The notes under the pieces are model-generated. The model was not told where the DNA came from, searched no databases, and saw only the letters and a list, made by a program, of their open reading frames with translations. Below, piece by piece: positions 44 to 42,640 of a DNA stretch of 48,783 bases (position 1 is its first letter; the number at the start of each line of letters is the position of its first letter). A program made the translations under genes and the position numbers. The stretch is taken from positions 1 to 48,783 of the forward strand of contig JAZDFI010000034.1 of NCBI GenBank assembly GCA_043808015.1, read 5' to 3'. The DNA is from Candidatus Aenigmatarchaeota archaeon. Lineage in GTDB: Archaea; Aenigmatarchaeota; Aenigmatarchaeia; QMZP01; QMZT01.

Positions 44-95
44 TATGTTCAAATAAAATATTATTTGCCGCTCAGTGTAAATGGGGTGATGGGGA

Positions 96-1139
96 ATGGA
101 GAATTGTGCTCAGAATGAATTTGAATCTCACCAGGCCAAGATAATGGTTTTTGGCTGTGGTGGCGGTGGTAGCAACACCATAAACAGGCTGACGAACATG
201 GACATACAAGGCGCAGTGACAATAGCTGCCAACACGGATGCCAGGCATCTTGCCGTCACAAACGCCCACAAGAAACTTCTCATAGGAAAAGACATCACGA
301 GAGGGCTAGGAGCAGGTGGTTACCCTGAAGTCGGAAGGAGAGCGGCTGAAGAGTCCAGGGAAGATATAAAGAAACTAATAACCGGCTGCGATTTGCTGTT
401 CGTGACATGTGGGCTTGGAGGCGGGACCGGAACAGGTTCGGCGCCAGTGGTGGCCAAGATCGCCAAGGAGACAGGCTCGATAGTGATAGGCACTGTCACG
501 CTGCCTTTCAAGATGGAAGGCGCGAGAGTAGGCAAGGCGGAAGACGGTCTGCAGCGACTAAGGGACGCATGTGACACTGTCATTGTTATAGAGAACCAGA
601 AGCTCGTCCAGCTTGCAGGCAACAGGCCGCTTGGAGAGGCATTCGCTGTGGCAGATGGCCTCATAGCGACAATGATAAAGGGCATAACGGAGACGATTTC
701 GCAACCGTCGCTGGTCAACCTCGACTACGCAGACGTCAAGACCATAATGAACTCTGGAGGCGTCGCGACGATAGGAGTCGGCATATCAGACACGAAGAAC
801 CGCGCTTACGAGGTCGTGGAGCAGGCGCTGAAGAACCCGCTGCTAGATGTCGACTATGAAGGTGCGACAGGCGCGCTGATACAGGTAATCGGCGGAGACG
901 ACATGACACTCGACGAGATAAACATCGTCGGCGAAACGATATCCAAGAAGATGAATCCCGACGCGACGGTCATGTGGGGAGCCAGGATCCTGCCGGAATT
1001 CAAGGGCAAGCTTCAGGTCATAACGATAATAACCGGAGTGAAGTCGCCTTACATAATGGGCAAGACCCAGGAAGCGAAGCAGGTGAAATCTGCTGCCGAG
1101 AACTTCTCGAAGGAGTTCGGCATCAGGGTTTACGCTTGA
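96..1139 (+). CDS. ftsZ: cell division protein FtsZ
   Basis: GCGGGGSN, NTDA, tubulin signature GLGGGTGTG, T7 loop NLDYAD. Confidence 0.97.
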   Translation: MENCAQNEFESHQAKIMVFGCGGGGSNTINRLTNMDIQGAVTIAANTDARHLAVTNAHKKLLIGKDITRGLGAGGYPEVGRRAAEESREDIKKLITGCDLLFVTCGLGGGTGTGSAPVVAKIAKETGSIVIGTVTLPFKMEGARVGKAEDGLQRLRDACDTVIVIENQKLVQLAGNRPLGEAFAVADGLIATMIKGITETISQPSLVNLDYADVKTIMNSGGVATIGVGISDTKNRAYEVVEQALKNPLLDVDYEGATGALIQVIGGDDMTLDEINIVGETISKKMNPDATVMWGARILPEFKGKLQVITIITGVKSPYIMGKTQEAKQVKSAAENFSKEFGIRVYA

Positions 1140-1186
1140 AGGCAAACACACCCAAACGTGTCATAGCTTTACCCAGGGAAAGGGCG

Positions 1187-1236
1187 GGCCGCTGGCGAAT
1201 CCGGGCGGCCTTTAACTTTCCTCTCATTCTTTTTTA
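1187..1236 (+). terminator. GC hairpin plus pyrimidine/T tract between convergent genes
   Basis: GGCCGC (1187-1192) pairs with GCGGCC (1205-1210), followed by TTTAACTTTCC...TTCTTTTTT. Confidence 0.35.
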
Positions 1237-1650
1237 TCATTTTATCCTGGCTAAATCGCCGTTTATGATGACGGGTCTTACCGCTTCTATTTCGGACTTG
1301 TAAAATTCTATTTCAGGGATGGGGTTCAACAGGAAAATTTTCTTGCCCAGGACGTGCGCGAAGCCGATCTCCATCAGCGTATTGCCGCCTATGTAATTTT
1401 TGACGCCCCTCCTGTCGTAATTGAGCACGAGAATCGCGTCGCTCTTCTTTATCTTATTCCAGAACCTGCGTATCGCGTCTTTCTCGTTCTTGTCCAAGAG
1501 CGTCAGCCTTTCCTTCTCCTTTTCGTTTTTGCCGGCGTATGAGCCGATGAAATCGGATATGAGAACCTCGTGGCCCAGCTTCTCGAGCTTCTCTTTCGTC
1601 TCCAGCATATTCTCGGCGAACACCATGCTCGAGCAGATAGCAATTTTCAT
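1237..1650 (-). CDS. nucleoside 2-deoxyribosyltransferase-like protein
   Basis: KIAICSSM...IKKSDAILVLN...YIGGNTLMEIGFA..LGKKIFLLN, NDT-like pattern with conserved Glu. Confidence 0.7.
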   Translation of the reverse strand: MKIAICSSMVFAENMLETKEKLEKLGHEVLISDFIGSYAGKNEKEKERLTLLDKNEKDAIRRFWNKIKKSDAILVLNYDRRGVKNYIGGNTLMEIGFAHVLGKKIFLLNPIPEIEFYKSEIEAVRPVIINGDLARIK

Positions 1651-1733
1651 GGTTATTGGATGATTAGTTGAAATAAAAATTCATCAAAGATGTTTTCCTG
1701 CCGCAACGTTTATTATCTTTATGAACAATTATC

Positions 1734-2747
1734 GTGATGAGGATTTCTTTGTTCCCGGGGGCGAGTCTGGTTGAAAAGGTGCGCTCCCTTTACGAAAACG
1801 ACGAGGCTGAGCTGCCTAAATTCACCGGTAAAAAGGACGGAAAAAACGCCGGTGTTTTGAGCCGCGGGAAAAAATACGCTGGCAGGAAGCGCAAGAAAGA
1901 GCTTTATGTTGATTCTAAAGACAGTGACGAGACGGAAGAGAAGGATTACGACACCGAATTCTCTTCAGAGAGCGGCGAGTACGTGAAAGCCGGCCATAAG
2001 AAACGCGAGGACCGGGCGAGAATCGAAGTCGAACCCGTCGCCGCGCAGGGCGTGCAGCGCCTCGAAGTCACGGGGAAAGCCGCTAAAAAAGCCGCGCTAT
2101 CGGGGGCGAAGGGCGCGGTCAACGAGATGCTGACGGAGGCGAACGTGAAGGACGCGAAATACGCCGACGAGCTCAACAGCACGACCGTTCCCGACGTCGG
2201 ATTTCATTACGGCAGGCGGACGGGCCTCGTCAAGATAGAATACAACGACCCCGTGTTCATCAACAACCAGTGGACCTACCAGCGCATATTCATGAAAAAC
2301 AACGTGGGCGAGTCCAACGTTTACGAGTTTACGGTCAAGAAGGCGGGCACCAGCGGCCTCGAGACGCAGATCAGGTATGACGACAAGTTCCAGACTTTTT
2401 ATTTCGAATCTCTAAACGGCGTGCGCGACGGCAGGAACCAGACATACTGGGAGGTCTGGGTCAACGGCAACATAGTCGAGGACGCGCTGGACAAGAAGGA
2501 AGTCAAAAAGGGCGACGTCGTTGAATGGCGATTGGCGAACGAGCGCGAGTCGTTCTGCGGCGGCGGAGGATACGAGGAGCGGTACACGAGGCCGGAGATG
2601 CGCTCCAAAATAAGCGTCGAGGCCGAAGCCATGAACCAGATGTACGGCGCCGGTTTCGGCTACGGCTCAGGCTTTATCACGCCGGCCATGCCGGCATTTT
2701 CCGTCAGCAATTACGGCTTCCACGGAAGGCCGCTGCAGAACATCTGA
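1734..2747 (+). CDS. DUF4430 (transcobalamin C-terminal-like beta-grasp) domain protein
   Basis: FESLNGV...YWEVWVNG...DKKEVKKGDVVEWRL; charged low-complexity N-terminus; no signal peptide. Confidence 0.65.
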   Translation: MMRISLFPGASLVEKVRSLYENDEAELPKFTGKKDGKNAGVLSRGKKYAGRKRKKELYVDSKDSDETEEKDYDTEFSSESGEYVKAGHKKREDRARIEVEPVAAQGVQRLEVTGKAAKKAALSGAKGAVNEMLTEANVKDAKYADELNSTTVPDVGFHYGRRTGLVKIEYNDPVFINNQWTYQRIFMKNNVGESNVYEFTVKKAGTSGLETQIRYDDKFQTFYFESLNGVRDGRNQTYWEVWVNGNIVEDALDKKEVKKGDVVEWRLANERESFCGGGGYEERYTRPEMRSKISVEAEAMNQMYGAGFGYGSGFITPAMPAFSVSNYGFHGRPLQNI

Positions 2748-2753
2748 AGCGGC

Positions 2754-3125
2754 TCACATGAACCTGGCTTTTTTTGCCTGGGAGGCATCGATTTCCTTCA
2801 GTTCGGCGTCCTTGGCCGCGGGCTCGAAATATTTTACTTTCTTGTTCATGCGCCTTGCAAGGTCCACGTCCTCTAACATCTCCCTGTTCATCTCGCCGAT
2901 CACCCACACTTCCGACGCCTTCTTTATCTGGCCCAATCGCTCTTTGTCTCTCGCTTCCTTGTCGTTCGTTATCCTGGACACCTGCGCGAAGTCGGCGGCC
3001 ACGTTCGGGTAAACCGGGATAAGCTTCAAAGCCGTCGCCATGCGCATCGCCTTGAAGCGCTGGCCGAAATCGTTCTTTGAAATTGAAATGTAAACCACGT
3101 TGCTCCCCTTTTCATCCAAAGCCAT
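2754..3125 (-). CDS. DUF4406/NDT-like flavodoxin-fold protein (divergent)
   Basis: VYIS...PVYP...IKKASEVWVIGEMNREMLEDVDLARRMNKKVKYF; SD GGAGGGTGG before ATG 3125. Confidence 0.55.
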   Translation of the reverse strand: MALDEKGSNVVYISISKNDFGQRFKAMRMATALKLIPVYPNVAADFAQVSRITNDKEARDKERLGQIKKASEVWVIGEMNREMLEDVDLARRMNKKVKYFEPAAKDAELKEIDASQAKKARFM

Positions 3126-3381
3126 AATACCACCCTCCACATCGCTTCTAAAACAAACACTTACCAGAAAAATAATTGGTCACGAGTTTATTTAAAACTC
3201 GCAGGCGTAGAAGTCATCCGAAGAACGGCTTGGAAAGAATGTCGACTCTGTATGCTGATTTGAAGCTGAATTTCACGAAAACAGGCACGAAAAAGCAGAA
3301 TGAAAGTTTATGCCGGAGACTGGCTAAATCACATCCGTCTTCAGCACCTAGTTGACGATATCTTTCACCATCGCTTGACAG

Positions 3382-4140
3382 TCAGGCAACCTCTTGCTTG
3401 TCACAACCGTTTCCGTATTTCCCGTACCCGTTGCCGTTGTGATTTCCATGGTTGCCATTCCTCGTTTCTATATATCTCTTCAGACAGGTTTCCATCTTCC
3501 CGAGCTCCGCGTTCAGCTCGCTGGCCTTGTAGCCGTTTTTCTTTGACAGCTTCCTGGAGATTTCGTCCATGCCCATTTCATATTTGAAGTTTATCTTATC
3601 GTCGATGTCCATGCCGCTGGTCATCACGTCTTTCATCAGGCCGTAGTATCTTTCTTTCACCTTTCCTATGGCCTTCTCCTTTTTGTGCTGCTTGTATTTC
3701 TTGTCTACCCGGTCTATCATTTTACCCAGCGATATCACGCCCAGCACGCCGAGCAGGTCGTGCAGCCATTCTATTTCGTTTTTTCCGGACGTGAGCAGGT
3801 ACGCCCCGCCGAAGCCCGCCGCGTGCAGGCTCCACGAGCTGGTCCAGTCGTATACATATTTTATAGCTTTTTTCGTCGCCTCAGAAGCCGTCACTGCATA
3901 GTCGCAGAGTTTCTGGATGTCAAGACCGTTTTCATACGCCGCGTTGTCGTCGAACGCTGGATACCATGTGTCGTTTCTGACGCCGCTGAGCCCTTTTGTC
4001 TTGTACTCCCTGTCTGTCGTCAACTGGGCGCCTCTCTGGGCACCCGTTGAGTCATTCACGGTAAAGCTATGGTTTTCTGCTTTAAAACCCTTTCTATTGG
4101 CCGATGCATATCGGTTTTTAGCGTAAAAATCCCAACTCAT
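3382..4140 (-). CDS. hypothetical protein with central hydrophobic segments and Asn/Gly-rich tail
   Basis: 252-aa ORF filling the gap; no family recognised. Confidence 0.7.
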   Translation of the reverse strand: MSWDFYAKNRYASANRKGFKAENHSFTVNDSTGAQRGAQLTTDREYKTKGLSGVRNDTWYPAFDDNAAYENGLDIQKLCDYAVTASEATKKAIKYVYDWTSSWSLHAAGFGGAYLLTSGKNEIEWLHDLLGVLGVISLGKMIDRVDKKYKQHKKEKAIGKVKERYYGLMKDVMTSGMDIDDKINFKYEMGMDEISRKLSKKNGYKASELNAELGKMETCLKRYIETRNGNHGNHNGNGYGKYGNGCDKQEVA

Positions 4141-36019: not shown

Positions 36020-37270
36020 ATGAAAAATAAAATAAATTCAGCAATACTGATAGCGTTTTTAATGATGTTCACTAGCATCAGCGTAGTTTATATTTCATGC
36101 ACAGCCTCCGCAGCCCAGTCCACGGTCACGATAGATAAAACCTTCACCTGTTCGGACGGCTTCAGCTCGGGCTGCTTCAAGACCGGTTGTATGGCAGAGA
36201 AACAGCTCAAGATGAGCAACAACCAGTATACCCTAGCGTTCGCCGCACCAAAAACAGGTGATTACAAGTGCACGATTAAAGCCGTGGCCAATTACTTCAA
36301 CTTTCCTGAAGGAAAAGCTGAAACCAACGAGGTGACGGACGTAAAGCTCAACGGCGTCAAGGTCGGTTCGACCAAGGATGAATGGTGCCCGCCCGGCGGG
36401 ACCACGAAACCTCCAACCGGATGCGACCTGAATTTGGAATGCTGCGAAACGAGGGCGACACCATGTGATTGTAACATTTTCCCTGAACCTAGCTGCAGCA
36501 ACGAGTGCAAACTGGATGATCCGAGCTGTCCTTGCGCAAAACCATACCTTCTCTGCGACGACGACCCGACGAATTTGAAATTGATGATAAGCATGGGAAA
36601 AGAAATGACAATGAGCCTCGAGAAATGCAAGCCGGGTGCCGTGGCTTTTGTAAGGGAAGGCGGCTTCAAACCCCGCTGCCAGAACTGGCAGTTCAGCACG
36701 ACGACCGTGAAAAGCAAAGGCGGGCAGGATGTCCGCTGTCCTGTATCCGCTACCATAACCGGCGGCAAGCTGATAGCGACGTACGATTGCAGCATAACGC
36801 GCAATTACAACATCAAGCTGGATTTCCTTACAGTCGGTAAGAGTTATACCTTGGGCGTCTGGTCGTCATCGACAAGCGCCGCGAGCTGGAGCACCATCAA
36901 CGCCTGCGCCACGGGATTCGCGCCTTATTATGCTGAAACAAAAGCCGACAAGGGCGACGGCTTATGCATTGGCGGCGGACCGCCGCCGGCCAACTGCGGC
37001 AACGGAGTGATAAACCCACCCGAGGAGTGCGATTGTCAAATATTGGGCGGAGAGAAAATATGCAACATGAACGGCAAGACTGATTGCTTATCACTAAACG
37101 TGGGCTACGTTTCAGGAATCCTTAAATGTACAAGTACCTGCACTTTCGATAAAAGCGAATGCAAAATATGCGGACCGGGTGAAACTCTTTGTGTGGACAA
37201 ATGCTGCCCCGTTGGTTCCACTTGTGACATTCCGACCCACACGTGCAGCAATGAGAAACTGCCGAATTAA
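36020..37270 (+). CDS. secreted Cys-rich paralog C
   Basis: Signal peptide; shared N-module; CGNGVINPPEECD (myxobacterial-type Cys-rich repeat) near the C-terminus; no TM anchor. Confidence 0.82.
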   Translation: MKNKINSAILIAFLMMFTSISVVYISCTASAAQSTVTIDKTFTCSDGFSSGCFKTGCMAEKQLKMSNNQYTLAFAAPKTGDYKCTIKAVANYFNFPEGKAETNEVTDVKLNGVKVGSTKDEWCPPGGTTKPPTGCDLNLECCETRATPCDCNIFPEPSCSNECKLDDPSCPCAKPYLLCDDDPTNLKLMISMGKEMTMSLEKCKPGAVAFVREGGFKPRCQNWQFSTTTVKSKGGQDVRCPVSATITGGKLIATYDCSITRNYNIKLDFLTVGKSYTLGVWSSSTSAASWSTINACATGFAPYYAETKADKGDGLCIGGGPPPANCGNGVINPPEECDCQILGGEKICNMNGKTDCLSLNVGYVSGILKCTSTCTFDKSECKICGPGETLCVDKCCPVGSTCDIPTHTCSNEKLPN

Positions 37271-37295
37271 GGCGTCAGGAAGCTATGATGATATT

Positions 37296-38711
37296 ATGAA
37301 AAATAAAACCGCTTTTGATATTTTGGCAGTTTTTACGCTATTGTTCGTTTCTGTAACTCTTGTTTACGGTTCAGGCACGGCCTCCGCCCAGTCCACGGTC
37401 ACTATAGATAAAACCTTCGCATGCGGCAGCGGCTTCTCGTGCAGAAGCGATACGCTTGGCCTGTGCCAGTCGACGCTCCAGCCTTATCTTAAAATGTTCA
37501 ACAACCAGTATTCCTTCACTCTCCCAGTCGACAAGCCGGGCGACTACAAGTGCACGGTCAAAGTCACCGCGAACCACTTCGACTTCCCGGAAGGGAAGAC
37601 GGACGAGCCTAACGAAGTCACGGACGTCTCGCTGAACGGCGTCAAGGTCGGTTCGACCACGGACAGCTGGTGTCTGCCCGGAAGCGTGCCATGCACCAAG
37701 CCAAAAATATGCAGCGAGAAATGTCTTTCTGTGGGATGCATTCAGGGCTACAAAGGCGACTGTCCTGACTGCTCATGCCCTTGCCGAGACACAGGCGAAG
37801 CAGGGGGAGCGTTCCTGGGCGGTTCTGGAGCAAAAGTTTTCGCTTTCAACGGAAAGGTGTGCTTCAAAATATCCCAAAAATTAATTGACGATTATACGTG
37901 GCTGGACAAGGGAACTGTTATAGGAATCTATAATCCAGTTAACAGACAGACTATCCACGTAGTATACAGAGGCTGTTACAATACACCTATGTACAAGAAC
38001 AAAATAGAAATCGGGGCCGGCTTCTGCTTTGCCTGTTCCTGCACGAACTGGTGCGGCTTAGACAGCCCCGGCATATCATTTACCGGAAACGCGGATGCAA
38101 TTTATACAGTCGAAGCGGCAAATGGCAGCTATAGCGTGACTGCCAGGATGAAAATGCCCAACGTGGCCGAAAAAATTCAAAAACTTTTTGTCACCAGCAG
38201 CGATAAAAATAATCTCAAGAGCCTCTACCCTTCCGGTTTTAATCTCAACAAATATTGCCTGAACTGCTGCTCACAACACGCCACTCCCGTATGTGAGGGC
38301 GGTACGGGCGGTTACATGAAATTACCCTCTTCATTGGTTACTATAATCCCCTGCGATAGCTCTGCCTGCAAAACTGTAGGGGAAACCTGTTCAGGCAACA
38401 GCGACTGCTGTTCGGGTCAATGTATTGCAAGTATACCACCTGTGTGTGTTTCCGCCCCGAGCTGCAAAGCTGCAGGAGAAACCTGCTCACTCGGTAACGA
38501 ATGCTGTTCAGGCTTATCATGCACTGGCGGCAAATGTCAAAGCACTCCAAGTTGCAAAACTGCAGGTCAAACATGCTCCAGCGGCAGTGAATGCTGCTCC
38601 GAATTTTGTTCAGAAGCGGGCATATGCAAGGACTGCGACGAGCCATGCGGCATGAGATGCTGCGCGCCGGGAAGAATCTGTGTCAATAATCTGTGCCAGA
38701 TTGGTGAATGA
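37296..38711 (+). CDS. secreted Cys-rich paralog D with C-terminal knottin-like repeats
   Basis: Signal peptide; N-module and middle domain shared with paralog A; 3 x C-C-CC-C-C repeats. Confidence 0.82.
   Translation: MKNKTAFDILAVFTLLFVSVTLVYGSGTASAQSTVTIDKTFACGSGFSCRSDTLGLCQSTLQPYLKMFNNQYSFTLPVDKPGDYKCTVKVTANHFDFPEGKTDEPNEVTDVSLNGVKVGSTTDSWCLPGSVPCTKPKICSEKCLSVGCIQGYKGDCPDCSCPCRDTGEAGGAFLGGSGAKVFAFNGKVCFKISQKLIDDYTWLDKGTVIGIYNPVNRQTIHVVYRGCYNTPMYKNKIEIGAGFCFACSCTNWCGLDSPGISFTGNADAIYTVEAANGSYSVTARMKMPNVAEKIQKLFVTSSDKNNLKSLYPSGFNLNKYCLNCCSQHATPVCEGGTGGYMKLPSSLVTIIPCDSSACKTVGETCSGNSDCCSGQCIASIPPVCVSAPSCKAAGETCSLGNECCSGLSCTGGKCQSTPSCKTAGQTCSSGSECCSEFCSEAGICKDCDEPCGMRCCAPGRICVNNLCQIGE
37427..37694 (+). 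repeat. dispersed direct repeat, copy 2
   Basis: Colinear with 29461-29728. Confidence 0.9.
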
Positions 38712-39254: not shown

Positions 39255-39307
39255 GCGCTATCAACCTGACCGGGTAAAATTTATAAACCCTTTGATTTAA
39301 TTAATAC

Positions 39308-39337
39308 TTGAACATTTAAAAGTTTTTAAAAGTTCAA
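39308..39337. promoter_or_regulatory. 30-bp near-perfect palindrome, candidate operator
   Basis: TTGAAC-A-TTTAAAA-GT-TTTTAAA-A-GTTCAA in the divergent intergenic region. Confidence 0.6.
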
Positions 39338-39371
39338 AATGTTAACATAAACTACTATTTAGCGTGATTGG

Positions 39372-41015
39372 ATGAAGAGAAAAACCACGGCAAAAAGGCC
39401 TAGGCCAGAAGCGCTGGCGAACGCTTCCAGCGGATACGCGGAAGAGCTTCCCCACAAGACGTCGTCAATATGCCCGGAGTGCCTTAAAATCCTGCCGGCG
39501 CTCGTTTTCGAAGAGGACGGCAAGGTCTGGATAGAGAAGACTTGTCCAAAACACGGCAAGTTCCGCGAGATATACTGGAGCTCAGCCGAGATGTACAGGA
39601 AGTCGATGAAATTCGCTTACGACGGGCATTCCATGGAGAATCCCAACGTGACGAAAGCGAATCCGACGTGCCCCAAAGACTGCGGCATCTGTTCGCTTCA
39701 TAAATCGCAGACGGCGCTGGCCAACCTCGTTGTCACGAACCGCTGCGACCTCAACTGCTGGTACTGCTTCTTCTTCGCGCAGAAGGCCGGCTATGTTTAC
39801 GAACCGTCTTTGGATGACCTGAGAAAGGCCGTGAAGCTCATGACGCAGCAGAAGCCCGTACCAGGGAACGCGGTGCAGCTTACCGGAGGCAATCCCGAGC
39901 TAAGGGAGGATATACTGGATATCATAAAGATGATAAGCGACGAGGGCGTCGATCACATCCAGCTCAACATGAACGGCACGCACAAGTTCTGGAACGACCC
40001 GGAATGGACCATGAAGGTTAGGGAAGCGGGCGTTAATACCGTTTACCTGTCGTTCGACGGCGTCACACCCAAGAGCAACCCGAAGAACCATTACGAAGTC
40101 CCGAACATGCTTCAGAATTCGAGAAAAGCCGGCATGGGCATAATTCTCGTCCCCACCATAATCAAATCCGTCAACGACAACGAAGTCGGCGACATACTGC
40201 GCTTCGGCTTCAAAAATATGGACGTCGTGCGCGGCGTCAACTACCAGCCGGTCTCGCTGGTCGGCCGCATGCCGCGAAAAGAGAGGGAAAAGTTCAGGAT
40301 AACCATACCGGACGTCATACAGAATATAGAGGAGCAGACGGACGGCCAGATAAGCAAGGATGACTTCTACCCGGTCCCGACCGTGAAGGCGATAACCGAT
40401 TTCGTCCAGGCGCTTACCAAAAAGCCGCAATATTCGCTATCGACGCACTTTGCCTGCGGCATGGCCACATACGTGTTCGAGCACGATGGCAGGATGCTGC
40501 CCATCACACGATTCGTCGACGTCGAAGGACTGCTGGAATACATAGAAGGGCAGGCGGACGAGCTGAACAAGGGAAGGAACAAGTACATCATCAGTGCCAA
40601 GATGCTGTTCAAGATGAATTCGTTCATCGACGGCAAGCGCGCGCCTAAAGGCTTCTCGCTCGGCAACATGCTATACAATGCGCTGATGAAGCACGACTAT
40701 CGCGCGCTCGGCGCTTTCCACCACAAATCGCTTTTCATCGGCATGATGCACTTCATGGATTTGATGAACTACGACATAGAAAGGGTAAAGAGATGTTGTA
40801 TTCATTATTTGACACCCGAAGCGGTGATACCTTTCTGTGCGTTTAATGTTATACCGGAGATGTACAGAGACAAAGTTCAGAATAAATATGCTATTTCTTT
40901 TAAAGAATGGGAAAAAATGACAGGCAAAACTCTTAAAAATGATTTATACAAAAGAGATATTGAAAAAATTAAAAATACGGACTTGTACAGGAAAACCTAC
41001 GAAGGTTTCTTGTAA
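39372..41015 (+). CDS. tes: radical SAM tetraether lipid synthase (MJ0619/Tes/GDGT-MAS family)
   Basis: N-terminal CPEC...CPKHG, CPKDCGICSLH, TNRCDLNCWYCF, HFACG, C-terminal RCCIHY...IPFCAFN. Confidence 0.88.
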   Translation: MKRKTTAKRPRPEALANASSGYAEELPHKTSSICPECLKILPALVFEEDGKVWIEKTCPKHGKFREIYWSSAEMYRKSMKFAYDGHSMENPNVTKANPTCPKDCGICSLHKSQTALANLVVTNRCDLNCWYCFFFAQKAGYVYEPSLDDLRKAVKLMTQQKPVPGNAVQLTGGNPELREDILDIIKMISDEGVDHIQLNMNGTHKFWNDPEWTMKVREAGVNTVYLSFDGVTPKSNPKNHYEVPNMLQNSRKAGMGIILVPTIIKSVNDNEVGDILRFGFKNMDVVRGVNYQPVSLVGRMPRKEREKFRITIPDVIQNIEEQTDGQISKDDFYPVPTVKAITDFVQALTKKPQYSLSTHFACGMATYVFEHDGRMLPITRFVDVEGLLEYIEGQADELNKGRNKYIISAKMLFKMNSFIDGKRAPKGFSLGNMLYNALMKHDYRALGAFHHKSLFIGMMHFMDLMNYDIERVKRCCIHYLTPEAVIPFCAFNVIPEMYRDKVQNKYAISFKEWEKMTGKTLKNDLYKRDIEKIKNTDLYRKTYEGFL

Positions 41016-41899
41016 GAATTTAGAATTTCTTCTAATTTTTCTGATCTCTTTGGATGTTTGAAATCGACAAGTCTTTGAAATTTTTCTATTTCATCTCTTC
41101 CTGTAATATTTATGTAATATATATCATTCTTATTTTTTATGACAGAGTTTCTTATTTCTAACTCTCTGAGAATCTCTGAAATACCTTCTGCCATTTTTCT
41201 ACTGGACGTGGCGTAGTTTACAATTCTGAGACCTTGTCTTTTAGTGTAAGCAACAGAACCATCCCCATCAAAACAACCACGCAAAAAGCATTTCTTGATC
41301 TCTATTGACGATTTTTTTATCTTTTCAGGCACTTCCACTATATCAAATTTTTTACCCTTTGGAATGCCTAATTCATGAAAAATAGTTGATATGGTTTTGT
41401 TTTTCACATAAACCTGCATTTCATTTTTTTGATATATATAAAAATTCTTATGGTTAAAAATTTTCTCTATATTTTCCATGAAAATTGATCTTAGATATTT
41501 TTGATTGTTTACAAATTCTACCCAAGCCAAGTTTTTGTCTATATGACCATCTGTTATTATCAATCCCATTAAATATGCTAGGTTCCCATCGATAGCGATG
41601 GGCAAACTTCTTTTAACAGGCAAACTTCCCTGCGCCGAGCCTATTCTAATGACTTTTACTTCTATCAATCGCGTGTCCATTTTAACACTCTCGTTTATTT
41701 TCAAAAGTGTTTTTACAGGTATCAAAAACTTACCGTTAAACCACCTGCTTACTGTGAATTGCCCTACTCCCAGATAACCAGCGAGCTTGTATTGACTACC
41801 AAAACTTACCAGTGCTTCGTCGAAAAACTCTTTTCTGAATTTTTCTTCAAGCCCGACAGAAAGTTCGCTAATTTCATATAAATTTAAGCAGTTTTCCAT
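40997..41899 (-). mobile_element. free-standing HTH + double-motif LAGLIDADG homing endonuclease gene
   Basis: LAYLMGLIITDG and FLRGCFDGDGS motifs; N-terminal HTH SQYKLAGYLGVGQFTVSRW; markedly AT-rich; no intein splicing motifs; stop codon overlaps tes. Confidence 0.85.
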
Positions 41900-41942
41900 G
41901 ATAATATATGCACTTTTAGGACATATAAACAATTTTTAGCAT

Positions 41943-42002
41943 GACATAGAAAGCATAAAGAAATCCGAATTGTACAAAAAGACGTACGAAGGGTTCGTTT
42001 AG
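41943..42002 (+). pseudogene. stranded duplicate of the tes 3' end
   Basis: DIESIKKSELYKKTYEGFV* versus tes end DIEKIKNTDLYRKTYEGFL* (13/19 identical, both 60 nt, stops aligned). Confidence 0.85.
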
Positions 42003-42067: not shown

Positions 42068-42640
42068 ATGAAAGTCATAGCGCTCAGAGCCGCTCTCAAG
42101 GACATGAACCGCGTCAATCTCGCTAAGGCGATACGCGAGGGAGCGATATTCGTTTACCCGACCGACACGCTCTACGGCATCGGCTGCAATGCGCTGATAC
42201 GGGAGAGCGTCGAGAAAATCGCCCGCGCGAAGGGCCGTGAACCAGGGAAACCGTTTTCCGTGATAGCGCCGTCGAAAGAGTGGATAACCGAGAACACGCG
42301 CATAGACGAGAACAACGCGAAGTTCGTCGACAATCTGCTCCCCGGGCCTTACACCGTCATACTGAAGGTGAAGAAGGAAATCCCCCTGGTTTCCGCCGAA
42401 GGGAAGCTGGGCGTGCGCATACCGAAGAACGAGTTCTGCGACTTCATCCGCTCCCAGGGCGTGCCGTTCGTCACGACGTCCGTCAACCTCGCCACAACAG
42501 GGCCCATCGCTTCCATCAAGGAGATGCCGGCGCAGCTAGCGAATGCAGTCGACTACGCGATAGATGCGGGCGAGCTCAGGGGCGACTCTTCCAGGATTTT
42601 CGACATCAGCGGCAAGGACATGCAGATAATCCGCTGGTAA
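42068..42640 (+). CDS. tsaC: L-threonylcarbamoyladenylate synthase (YrdC domain only)
   Basis: YPTDTLYGIGC, KGR..GKP, LPGPYT, GVRIP, TTSVN. Confidence 0.9.
   Translation: MKVIALRAALKDMNRVNLAKAIREGAIFVYPTDTLYGIGCNALIRESVEKIARAKGREPGKPFSVIAPSKEWITENTRIDENNAKFVDNLLPGPYTVILKVKKEIPLVSAEGKLGVRIPKNEFCDFIRSQGVPFVTTSVNLATTGPIASIKEMPAQLANAVDYAIDAGELRGDSSRIFDISGKDMQIIRW

Follow-up and report, generated by a model that had tools for sequence, protein, structure and literature searches.

Organization of the tes locus

In this work, a 48,783-nucleotide stretch of archaeal DNA (the window) was analysed with respect to tes, the gene of a tetraether lipid synthase (Tes), and to a candidate homing cassette at its 3' end, in which the gene of a LAGLIDADG endonuclease converges on tes. 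The window is contig C34 of a Candidatus Aenigmatarchaeota (DPANN) genome, G000, which is a metagenome-assembled genome (MAG) of 934 kb in 39 contigs with a completeness of 90.7%. The genomes G001, G002, G003, and G004 are its congeners, and G014 and G018 belong to one other genus. The features of the locus are collected in Table 1. The tes gene is an uninterrupted single open reading frame (ORF), the Tes model covers residues 29-509 of its product, and this product matches GDGT-MAS (PDB 7tol) with an E value of 4.7e-144 in an alignment that reaches residue 516. Two parts can be distinguished in it, a long 5' part with host-type codons and a short AT-rich 3' part, which is read in frame with the former and retains the conserved Cys motifs. 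The LAGLIDADG gene lies on the opposite strand. Its stop codon TAG occupies positions 40997-40999 and the tes stop positions 41013-41015, so the two genes overlap tail to tail by 19 bases. Alignment with homologues places the start of the endonuclease at the ATG in positions 41897-41899, and a longer ORF starting with TTG is unconserved. Beyond the 5' region of the endonuclease gene there is a second, shorter tes ending, followed by tsaC.

Table 1. Features of the tes locus and of two further cassettes in the same genome. Positions refer to the window unless another contig is named. GC3, G+C content at third codon positions; LLR, log-likelihood ratio; dS, synonymous divergence; aaRS, aminoacyl-tRNA synthetase.
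Feature	Position	Strand	Properties
tes, whole ORF (547 codons)	39372-41015	+	Tes NCBIfam NF045702, 707.5 bits (cut-off 450)
tes, host-type 5' part, codons 1-468	39372-40775	+	GC3 0.76; 90.0% nucleotide identity to G003, dS 0.47
Direct repeat GACATAGAAAG, left copy, 11 bases	40773-40783	+	at the GC3 change-point
tes, cassette-borne 3' part, 79 codons, DIERVKRCCIHY to EGFL and stop	40776-41015	+	GC3 0.34; change-point LLR 25.2
LAGLIDADG gene, free-standing, 300 aa	40997-41899	-	Pfam LAGLIDADG_3, 69.2 bits (cut-off 22.5)
Endonuclease gene 5' region, right end of the cassette	41900-41942	-	TATA-like box TTTATATG, conserved block AAGTGCATA
Remnant of the native tes ending, 20 codons, DIESIKKSELYKKTYEGFV and stop	41943-42002	+	13/19 identical to the resident ending
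Direct repeat GACATAGAAAG, right copy	41943-41953	+	first 11 bases of the remnant
tsaC (Sua5/YciO/YrdC), right-hand host flank	42068-42640	+	PF01300, 134 bits; TIGR00057, 146.7 bits; GC3 0.79
C7 cassette (L003)	G000:C7:71672-74833, locus 70-2432		tRNA-synt_2 class II aaRS
C8 cassette (L004)	G000:C8:20656-24060, locus 891-3405		tRNA-synt_2b + HGTP_anticodon class II aaRS

As a side observation on tes itself, intein-containing Tes has a model of its own, NF045703. The Tes of the window matches the C-extein of this model from residue 132, and the match begins beside the radical-SAM Cys motif (tes residue ~131-132). Because a separate model exists for the intein-containing protein, tes is a known intein target too, at another site.

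Composition switch in tes and the native remnant

An earlier note on this DNA, made from the sequence alone, had described an abrupt switch of tes to AT-rich codons at the motif RCCIHY, a convergent LAGLIDADG gene with its stop inside the last tes codons, and a second tes C-terminus just beyond that gene. The overlap is as given above, and the other two observations were likewise borne out. In windows of 150 bases the G+C content drops at about 40750-40900, from 0.51-0.57 down to 0.27-0.36, and comes back up at about 42100. The maximum-likelihood change-point of GC3 was placed after codon 468 (nucleotide 40776), five codons ahead of RCCIHY (AGATGTTGTATTCATTAT at 40791-40808), and none of 300 permutations reached its LLR. 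The endonuclease gene has a GC3 of 0.31. In the whole set of loci where tes and endonuclease are linked, the enzymes range from 0.28 to 0.31 and the tes 3' parts from 0.32 to 0.36, as compared with 0.79 for tsaC. Compared with the native consensus, the resident tes copy carries many synonymous differences from RCCIHY to PFCAFNVIPEWYRD.

The same analysis was made for 28 tes alleles (30 loci less L032, L037, and L038, plus L052). L032 was left out as it is in two frames, and L037 and L038 as they come from a distant family and have a different C-terminus. All four endonuclease-linked alleles have their change-point 5-10 codons before RCxIHY, with LLRs of 25.2, 23.1, 20.1, and 5.5, which were matched by 0, 0, 0, and 7 of 300 permutations, respectively, and a 3'-terminal drop of GC3 was found in none of the 24 alleles without the endonuclease. 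Two of these unlinked alleles have change-points elsewhere, at codon 42 in G001 and at codon 188 in G027, both rising and reached by 0 of 300 permutations. In G027 (L025) the GC3 increases from 0.44 to 0.69 with an LLR of 15.9, and this tes may be a mosaic of another kind. The omitted tes of G006 (L032, contig C91, 1177-2798) changes frame at about residue 430, which may reflect a frameshift, a sequencing error, or a broken gene.

The second tes ending is unique in the window: among 97,454 six-frame 19-mers, more than seven identities to the resident ending were found only in the resident ending itself (19/19) and in the remnant. It is severed from any reading frame by a TAG two codons upstream, and its position is where native tes ends in relatives that lack the endonuclease. 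The remnant is closest to the tes ending of the congener G004 (14/19 identical), at a length too short for it to be placed. G003 has the same remnant, with 86.7% nucleotide identity to that of G000, i.e., with host-level divergence. G018 has one of 14 codons (SSELYRKTYEGFVD and stop) that resembles the ending of its genus mate, and no remnant was seen in L052.

The first 11 bases of the remnant, GACATAGAAAG, recur at the left edge of the cassette. Only these two matches occur in the window, where 0.04 would be expected by shuffling, and both are also present in G003. Both copies encode Asp-Ile-Glu, and this coding constraint raises the odds of a chance match above the shuffle estimate (to roughly five in a hundred by our own estimate). 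The repeat may therefore be either a chance match under coding constraint or a microhomology where the founding junction formed.

The endonuclease

The product of the LAGLIDADG gene has an N-terminal helix-turn-helix (HTH) domain of ~95 residues, whose match to HTH_3 is weak, followed by an I-DmoI-like core with both LAGLIDADG motifs, LAYLMGLIITDGHI and FLRGCFDGDGSV, in one chain. Residues T116, D117, and G118 and residues D211, G212, D213, and G214 are invariant across the four homologues, and the acidic residues of the motifs (TDG, DGDG) are kept. The structural model (pLDDT 81.6, pTM 0.83) was compared with known structures by Foldseek. I-DmoI chains gave a TMt of 0.69-0.73 and I-Tsp061I one of 0.70, intein endonuclease domains were also found, and E values went down to 4e-11. 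In this predicted model, and by these matches, the protein has the two-domain alpha-beta-beta-alpha-beta-beta-alpha fold. The dN/dS ratio (nonsynonymous to synonymous divergence) of the gene between G000 and G003 is 0.12. Since the acidic motif residues are invariant, the dN/dS ratio is low and the modelled fold is I-DmoI-like, the enzyme is likely active.

The gene lies outside any intron or intein, as a separate ORF on the opposite strand. No Rfam family was matched between 39000 and 43000 at E up to 1, so there is no intron ribozyme at the locus. Upstream of the gene, G000, G003, and G018 share the conserved motif TTTATATGTCCTAAAAGTGCATA, which L052 has in part. The A/T-rich box TTTATATG lies ~25 nt upstream of the ATG, and together with AAGTGCATA it may form a promoter of the endonuclease gene.

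Occupied and empty sites in related genomes

In total, 41 related genomes including G000 were searched, and tes was found in 39 of them. Close homologues of the endonuclease were present only in G003 (same genus, 97% identity) and G018 (other genus, 53%). When one genome per GTDB species was scanned, L052 (44%) was added, and its endonuclease gene too is located on the 3' end of tes. All three other endonucleases of more than 40% identity among the GTDB species genomes are thus convergent on the tes 3' end, which they overlap or abut, and the proposal that the same endonuclease would be found beside tes elsewhere holds for three other Aenigmatarchaeota genomes. In the weaker matches this linkage was not seen: tes lies beside none of the 77 weaker endonuclease loci in genomes and beside none of the 80 metagenome loci among the matches listed, where the best identity was 32%. 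Three loci were found on viral contigs, with an identity of at most 27%, and there was no sign in them of a viral vector. The protein database gave four clusters at E up to 1e-10, and the informative two (53 and 45% identity) are on contigs of 2.6 and 2.4 kb.

It had also been expected that relatives without the endonuclease would have tes followed directly by tsaC. This is the case in six loci, with a spacer of 20-44 bases, among them those of the congeners G004 and G002. Within the genus, the site is therefore occupied in G000 and G003 and empty in G002 and G004, and the contig of G001 ends inside tes.

The next homologue in order of similarity (L041, G010:C11:40569-44405, 1240-2415) is 391 aa long, has 36-37% identity, and carries a C-terminal extension. 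It precedes a ThrRS-like gene of the same strand, the start of which it overlaps, and it might represent a 5'-end version of the same trick.

Exchange of the cassette between genomes

By comparing G000 with G003, the divergence of the cassette was found to be much lower than that of its flanks. The body of tes differs by 10.0%, tsaC by 10.8%, and the remnant by 13.3%, whereas the AT-rich tes end differs by 0.4% (1/229; 228 of the 229 bases from 40787 are identical) and the endonuclease gene by 2.8% (25/884). With pooled mismatches of 29/1156 in the cassette and 198/1920 in the flanks, Fisher's test gave p 1.3e-17. The synonymous divergence follows the same order, with a dS of 0.47 for the 5' part of tes, 0.43 for tsaC, 0.10 for the endonuclease, and 0.023 for tes codons 469-547. 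The tract without mismatches runs from 40716 to 41005, the tract of low divergence extends to about 41936, and from 41937, just short of the remnant, the mismatches are dense again. The low-divergence tract takes in 60-71 bases of host-type tes together with the whole AT-rich 3' end, as in co-conversion. Because the drop in divergence coincides with the edges of the cassette, it is the cassette, almost exactly, that was exchanged after the split of G000 and G003, and the remnant in each host comes from its own DNA.

The 5' and 3' parts of tes in G018 differ in their closest relatives and thus in their histories. Its 5' part is 86% identical to that of the genus mate G014, which is its sister in the tree (SH-aLRT, Shimodaira-Hasegawa-like approximate likelihood-ratio test, 99). 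Its 3' part is only 61% identical to that of G014 and 74-75% identical to those of two members of another family. Against G038 of family f5, the identity is 62% for the 5' part and 75% for the 3' part. The 3' part of G018 lies inside a clade of other families (96/91), and a pairing of the two genus mates on the 3' columns is rejected by the approximately unbiased (AU) test (p 0.0056).

A further difference between G000 and G003 was observed upstream of tes. A Cys-rich, secreted-looking protein (37179-38711, 510 aa) is very divergent between the two genomes. At 37872-38711 the nucleotide identity is 52% with 295 gap columns, as compared with ~90% in the neighbouring genes.

Population variants in other public runs

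Four other public runs (X1-X4) were represented by contigs, for which only presence and joins were counted and uncovered parts carry no weight. In run X2, a contig of 3498 bases corresponds to positions 39300-41033 of the window, with 115 differences over this part, and is then joined to position 41940, from where it extends across the remnant and into tsaC. Missing from it are 906 bases of the endonuclease gene (41034-41939), and the last 11 codons of that gene, the AT-rich tes end, and the remnant are kept. As these last 11 codons are still there, the X2 allele is a natural deletion derivative and not the state before the arrival of the endonuclease. A microhomology AATTTT was considered at the deletion and rejected because of a mismatch to the reported joint.

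Runs X3 and X4, which come from two other studies, contain short contigs that together cover most of the cassette (about 40830-42000) and have 1 to 15 differences each. In both runs there is also a contig that agrees with the window as far as 41018, which is three bases beyond the tes stop, and from there on carries the same unlike G+C-rich sequence. This continuation may represent another allele, with the AT-rich end and a different downstream neighbour and without the endonuclease. Run X1, with a share of 0.30 of the words, gave only short diverged pieces of 37-86 bases and is uninformative.

Further cassettes in the same genome

In a genome-wide scan for GC3 change-points (808 ORFs of at least 200 aa), tes ranks eighth. 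Among the 25 top-ranked ORFs (LLR of at least 14.1), six have a drop within 100 codons of the 3' end, namely tes, two aaRS genes, and one ORF each on contigs C13, C30, and C9. The hits on C13 and C30, which are stronger than tes, were rejected as ORFs that run out of frame into the next gene, and the hit on C9 as an antisense ORF inside a larger gene. The other three, tes and the two class II aaRS genes, have AT-rich 3' ends and each adjoin a LAGLIDADG ORF.

In the aaRS gene on C7, the GC3 falls from 0.77 to 0.26 at 35 codons before the stop. The convergent LAGLIDADG ORF encodes 332 aa with HTH matches at both ends, and a remnant (IFTRTPEKLVP and stop) is found just past it. In the aaRS gene on C8, the GC3 falls from 0.73 to 0.34 at 64 codons before the stop, and the remnant comprises 45 residues with 47% identity (E 4.9e-6). 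The LAGLIDADG gene of this cassette is split into two ORFs of 156 and 249 aa, which suggests that the endonuclease may be decaying. The LLRs of the two aaRS change-points are 18.6 and 16.8.

The sister species G003 has empty sites at both aaRS loci. At the C7 locus, the occupied and the empty allele differ by 5-16 positions per 105 nt in the body of the gene and by 20 and 30 in the last two bins, and the remnant has the native ending EKLVP where the resident copy ends in DRLVP. The C7-type site of G001 is occupied, with an endonuclease of 66% identity and a remnant. In G002 the AT-rich ending DRLVP is present, with neither endonuclease nor remnant, and the G004 allele of this gene shows no drop of GC3. 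A homing cycle is thus represented here by empty, occupied, decayed, and scar alleles.

Four more free-standing LAGLIDADG ORFs were observed in G000 (L002, L005, L006, and L007, on contigs C14, C15, C8, and C22, respectively). Three of them lie in AT-rich islands (GC3 0.26-0.34) with no obvious replaced gene end. The fourth has a host-like GC3 of 0.63 and a matching open frame of 245 aa in G003.

Proposed mechanism and alternative explanations

Most probably, the region from about 40776 to 41942 is a free-standing homing cassette, with neither intron nor intein, composed of the endonuclease gene and an AT-rich copy of the last 79 tes codons. LAGLIDADG homing endonucleases make site-specific double-strand cuts in long targets (about 14-40 bp). 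We hypothesize that the predicted enzyme cuts tes alleles without the cassette inside the ~56 replaced codons between RCCIHY and KR, a highly conserved block with conserved Cys motifs. The break would be repaired from an allele that bears the cassette, with the left crossover in the tes body and the right crossover in the last 20 tes codons, which in the donor are represented by the remnant beyond the endonuclease gene. The remnant would thereby act as the right homology arm. The recipient would end up with its tes body, a foreign 3' end, the endonuclease gene, and its own last 20 codons as a dead remnant, and tes would remain whole throughout. The synonymous differences of the resident copy would protect it from cutting and would also block a crossover between the cut and the endonuclease gene. 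A break inside the replaced block would account for a left edge at nearly the same codon in three lineages, and also for the loss of the native DNA between this edge and the remnant. When native and cassette alleles were compared for a target site, the synonymous differences were found across the whole block and no candidate of 14-22 bases stood out.

Several points weigh against this interpretation. The group rejected by the AU test was picked after the alignment had been viewed, though it is the taxonomic genus. The 3' protein of G000 is 78-80% identical to those of its genus mates, as compared with 72-75% for the 5' part, and in the 3' tree it falls within family f1 without a resolved place. 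Judged from these sequences, the 3' end of G000 appears foreign only by its codons and its divergence, and not by protein phylogeny. Thus, of the contrast between separate trees of the two tes parts that the earlier note had anticipated, the part concerning G018 stood, and for the window's own 3' protein no foreign origin came out. In a search for the donor, BLAST of 40716-41033 against 91 genomes of the order gave a best identity of 76% apart from G003, and either the donor was a close, unsampled AT-rich relative or the copy has had a longer history. The tes 3' parts of the three lineages share an amino acid identity of only 60-62%, which would mean that the 3' end was exchanged along the way and is not a fixed part of one element, or else that the lineages are old. 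The right junctions also differ, with a remnant of 20 codons in G000, 14 in G018, and none seen in L052. Since the genomes are MAGs, cross-talk between strains could inflate the identity of the stretch shared by G000 and G003, although the 25 differences in the endonuclease gene argue otherwise. Cleavage, cut site, and immunity are predictions, and in principle the segment could also be moved by ordinary recombination with no help from the enzyme.

This last point leads to the alternative that fares best, that the AT-rich segment is an ordinary patch of horizontal recombination, with the endonuclease as an inactive or irrelevant passenger. We consider it improbable. The activity of the enzyme is predicted from its sequence, the AT-rich end persists without the enzyme in the X2 variant and in the aaRS allele of G002, and the endonuclease of the C8 locus is split in two ORFs, all of which would suit a passenger. 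However, such losses are also predicted by a homing cycle. Three endonuclease lineages with 44-53% identity hold the same position and overlap on tes, the gene is under purifying selection with invariant catalytic residues, and the recently exchanged tract stops at the right edge of the cassette. Moreover, the same design is found at three genes of one 0.93 Mb genome, each with a LAGLIDADG ORF.

Less probable by a clear step is a domesticated protein, in which the HTH-LAGLIDADG protein would be a WhiA-like regulator or another host factor of tes expression and the AT-richness would be regulatory. The N-terminal HTH domain and weak matches to the WhiA LAGLIDADG domain (PF14527, 25.5 bits; Foldseek 3hyi and 8dy9 at ranks 48-49) point in this direction, and a host factor would also show purifying selection and a conserved overlap with tes. 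To our knowledge, the acidic catalytic residues of LAGLIDADG endonucleases are absent from WhiA, whereas they are retained here. In addition, the gene stands beside tes in only four genomes (G000, G003, and G018 of the 41 searched, plus L052), the congeners manage without it, and a deletion variant exists. Its composition is foreign, and its divergence is decoupled from that of the host.

An old vertical insertion, by which the cassette was present in the family ancestor and lost in most lineages while its AT-richness arose in place, is more doubtful still. It would agree with the genus-typical 3' protein of G000 and with the deep divergence of the endonuclease lineages. It is, however, already contradicted by a dS in the cassette that is 5-20 times below that of the flanks between congeners. 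There is also no known cause for a local drift of GC3 from 0.76 to 0.34 within one gene, the 3' part of G018 groups with other families, and aaRS sites are occupied in one species and empty in another with 95% identity in that protein. The least credible alternative is a chimera of assembly or binning, which the earlier note had named as a possible refutation: the window does come from a MAG in 39 contigs, but the same arrangement is present in the independent MAG assemblies of G003, G018, and L052, contigs from X3 and X4 cover most of the cassette, and the tes frame is unbroken across the junction.

The homing cassette at tes may be one member of a wider class. For this wider proposal we see about an even chance: that chromosomes of Aenigmatarchaeota carry an active class of gene-end replacement cassettes, each combining a convergent LAGLIDADG gene with an essential gene whose 3' end is recoded (tes and at least two aaRS genes in G000). 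Such cassettes would keep the native tip as the right homology arm and so could home into every relative possessing the gene, whatever lies downstream. They would make essential genes mosaic across species, genera, and families, and would leave AT-rich scars after loss of the endonuclease.

Comparison with known systems

In cellular genomes, homing endonuclease genes are considered to persist mostly inside introns and inteins, where they are hidden from selection. The tes locus would represent a third route of survival on an archaeal chromosome, in which the endonuclease brings a spare gene end. Its stages are seen in natural populations as empty, occupied, endonuclease-deleted, and scar alleles. 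It indicates that pieces of essential genes, of a membrane-lipid synthase and of tRNA synthetases, move between DPANN species and even families, which matters for composition-based binning and for gene trees that use such markers. Candidates for new nucleases with long targets are also provided by these enzymes, and the likely targets could be read from the empty-site alleles. In open-access papers and bioRxiv, we found no archaeal, DPANN, or bacterial report of a design that replaces gene ends, and none on inteins of tetraether lipid synthases or on homing endonucleases of Aenigmatarchaeota.

In its core fold and motifs the enzyme resembles archaeal I-DmoI, I-Tsp061I, PI-PfuI, and the TliVMA intein (PDB 2vs7, 2dch, 1dq3, and 7qsu), with Foldseek E values of 4e-11 to 1e-7 against archaeal LAGLIDADG structures and a phmmer E value of 1.6e-9 to 7qsu. 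Unlike these intron and intein enzymes, that of the tes cassette comes without intron or intein and has an extra N-terminal HTH domain, and the gene is saved by a replacement end and not by splicing.

Free-standing endonucleases are also found in T4-like phages, SegF and SegG among them. For SegB and MobE, intronless homing has been described (PMC2330249, PMC2790892). As far as the consulted parts of these two papers go, the phage genes are likewise free-standing beside conserved genes, are co-converted with flanking markers, and are patchy among relatives. Their enzymes cut a nearby site in genomes that lack them, and the carrier is immune by sequence differences, which we likewise propose for the tes cassette. 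In the same parts, they are of the GIY-YIG or HNH type, reside in phage genomes, spread at co-infection, and have no duplicated gene end. In contrast, the tes cassette has a LAGLIDADG enzyme, is located on a cellular chromosome, and combines the replacement of a gene end with a remnant.

Two other systems keep a host gene working around an endonuclease. The portions of the sources used here describe fractured genes, in which free-standing endonuclease genes lie between the halves of split inteins (PMC2677866), and LAGLIDADG-bearing insertions in rRNA genes of Candidate Phyla Radiation (CPR) bacteria (PMC11270868). As at tes, the endonuclease is lodged in a conserved gene of uncultured small-genome microbes. 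Unlike the tes cassette, these systems rely, in the portions cited, on protein trans-splicing or on removal of the rRNA insert, whereas tes simply ends in the supplied copy.

Among known systems, the mobile ORF (mORF) of fungal mitochondria with a replaced C-terminus comes closest. In the sections of PMC3630166 on which we draw, an inserted C-terminal and a displaced native C*-terminal part are distinguished for atp6 of Allomyces macrogynus, for atp6, atp9, cox2, and nad3 of Glomus sp., for atp9 of Rhizopus, and for cox2 of Mortierella, and C-terminal duplications beside endonuclease ORFs are described in part of PMC6279837. According to these sections, an mORF, mostly of the LAGLIDADG family, arrives with a foreign 3' end that is read in frame with the gene core, and the original 3' end stays beyond the ORF as a duplicate without expression. 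At the DNA level the inserted end has diverged, its protein is similar, and the displaced native end looks like that of close relatives. The tes cassette shares the in-frame supplied end, divergent in its codons, and the native ending left beyond the endonuclease gene. A foreign origin of the inserted end is seen in the protein tree for G018 and in codon use for G000, and the short remnant of G000 is most similar to the G004 ending. The suggestion of the earlier note that an unusual selfish element resides on an archaeal chromosome is supported as regards a mobile cassette, and it is less singular than had been supposed, with two more cassettes in the genome and the fungal mitochondrial precedent. 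The differences from the mORFs, as these are described in the sections cited, are that the tes cassette is on an archaeal chromosome, that the targets are tes and aaRS genes, and that the remnant represents just a part of the replaced segment. Furthermore, the fungal ORFs lie downstream of the gene, often in phase, whereas the endonuclease gene of the tes cassette runs in the opposite direction, overlaps the end of tes, stop included, by 19 bases, and is preceded by a putative promoter of its own. Because the endonuclease ORF is on the opposite strand and overlaps the tes stop, the tes cassette is a variant of the mORF with a replaced C-terminus and not a member of that class.

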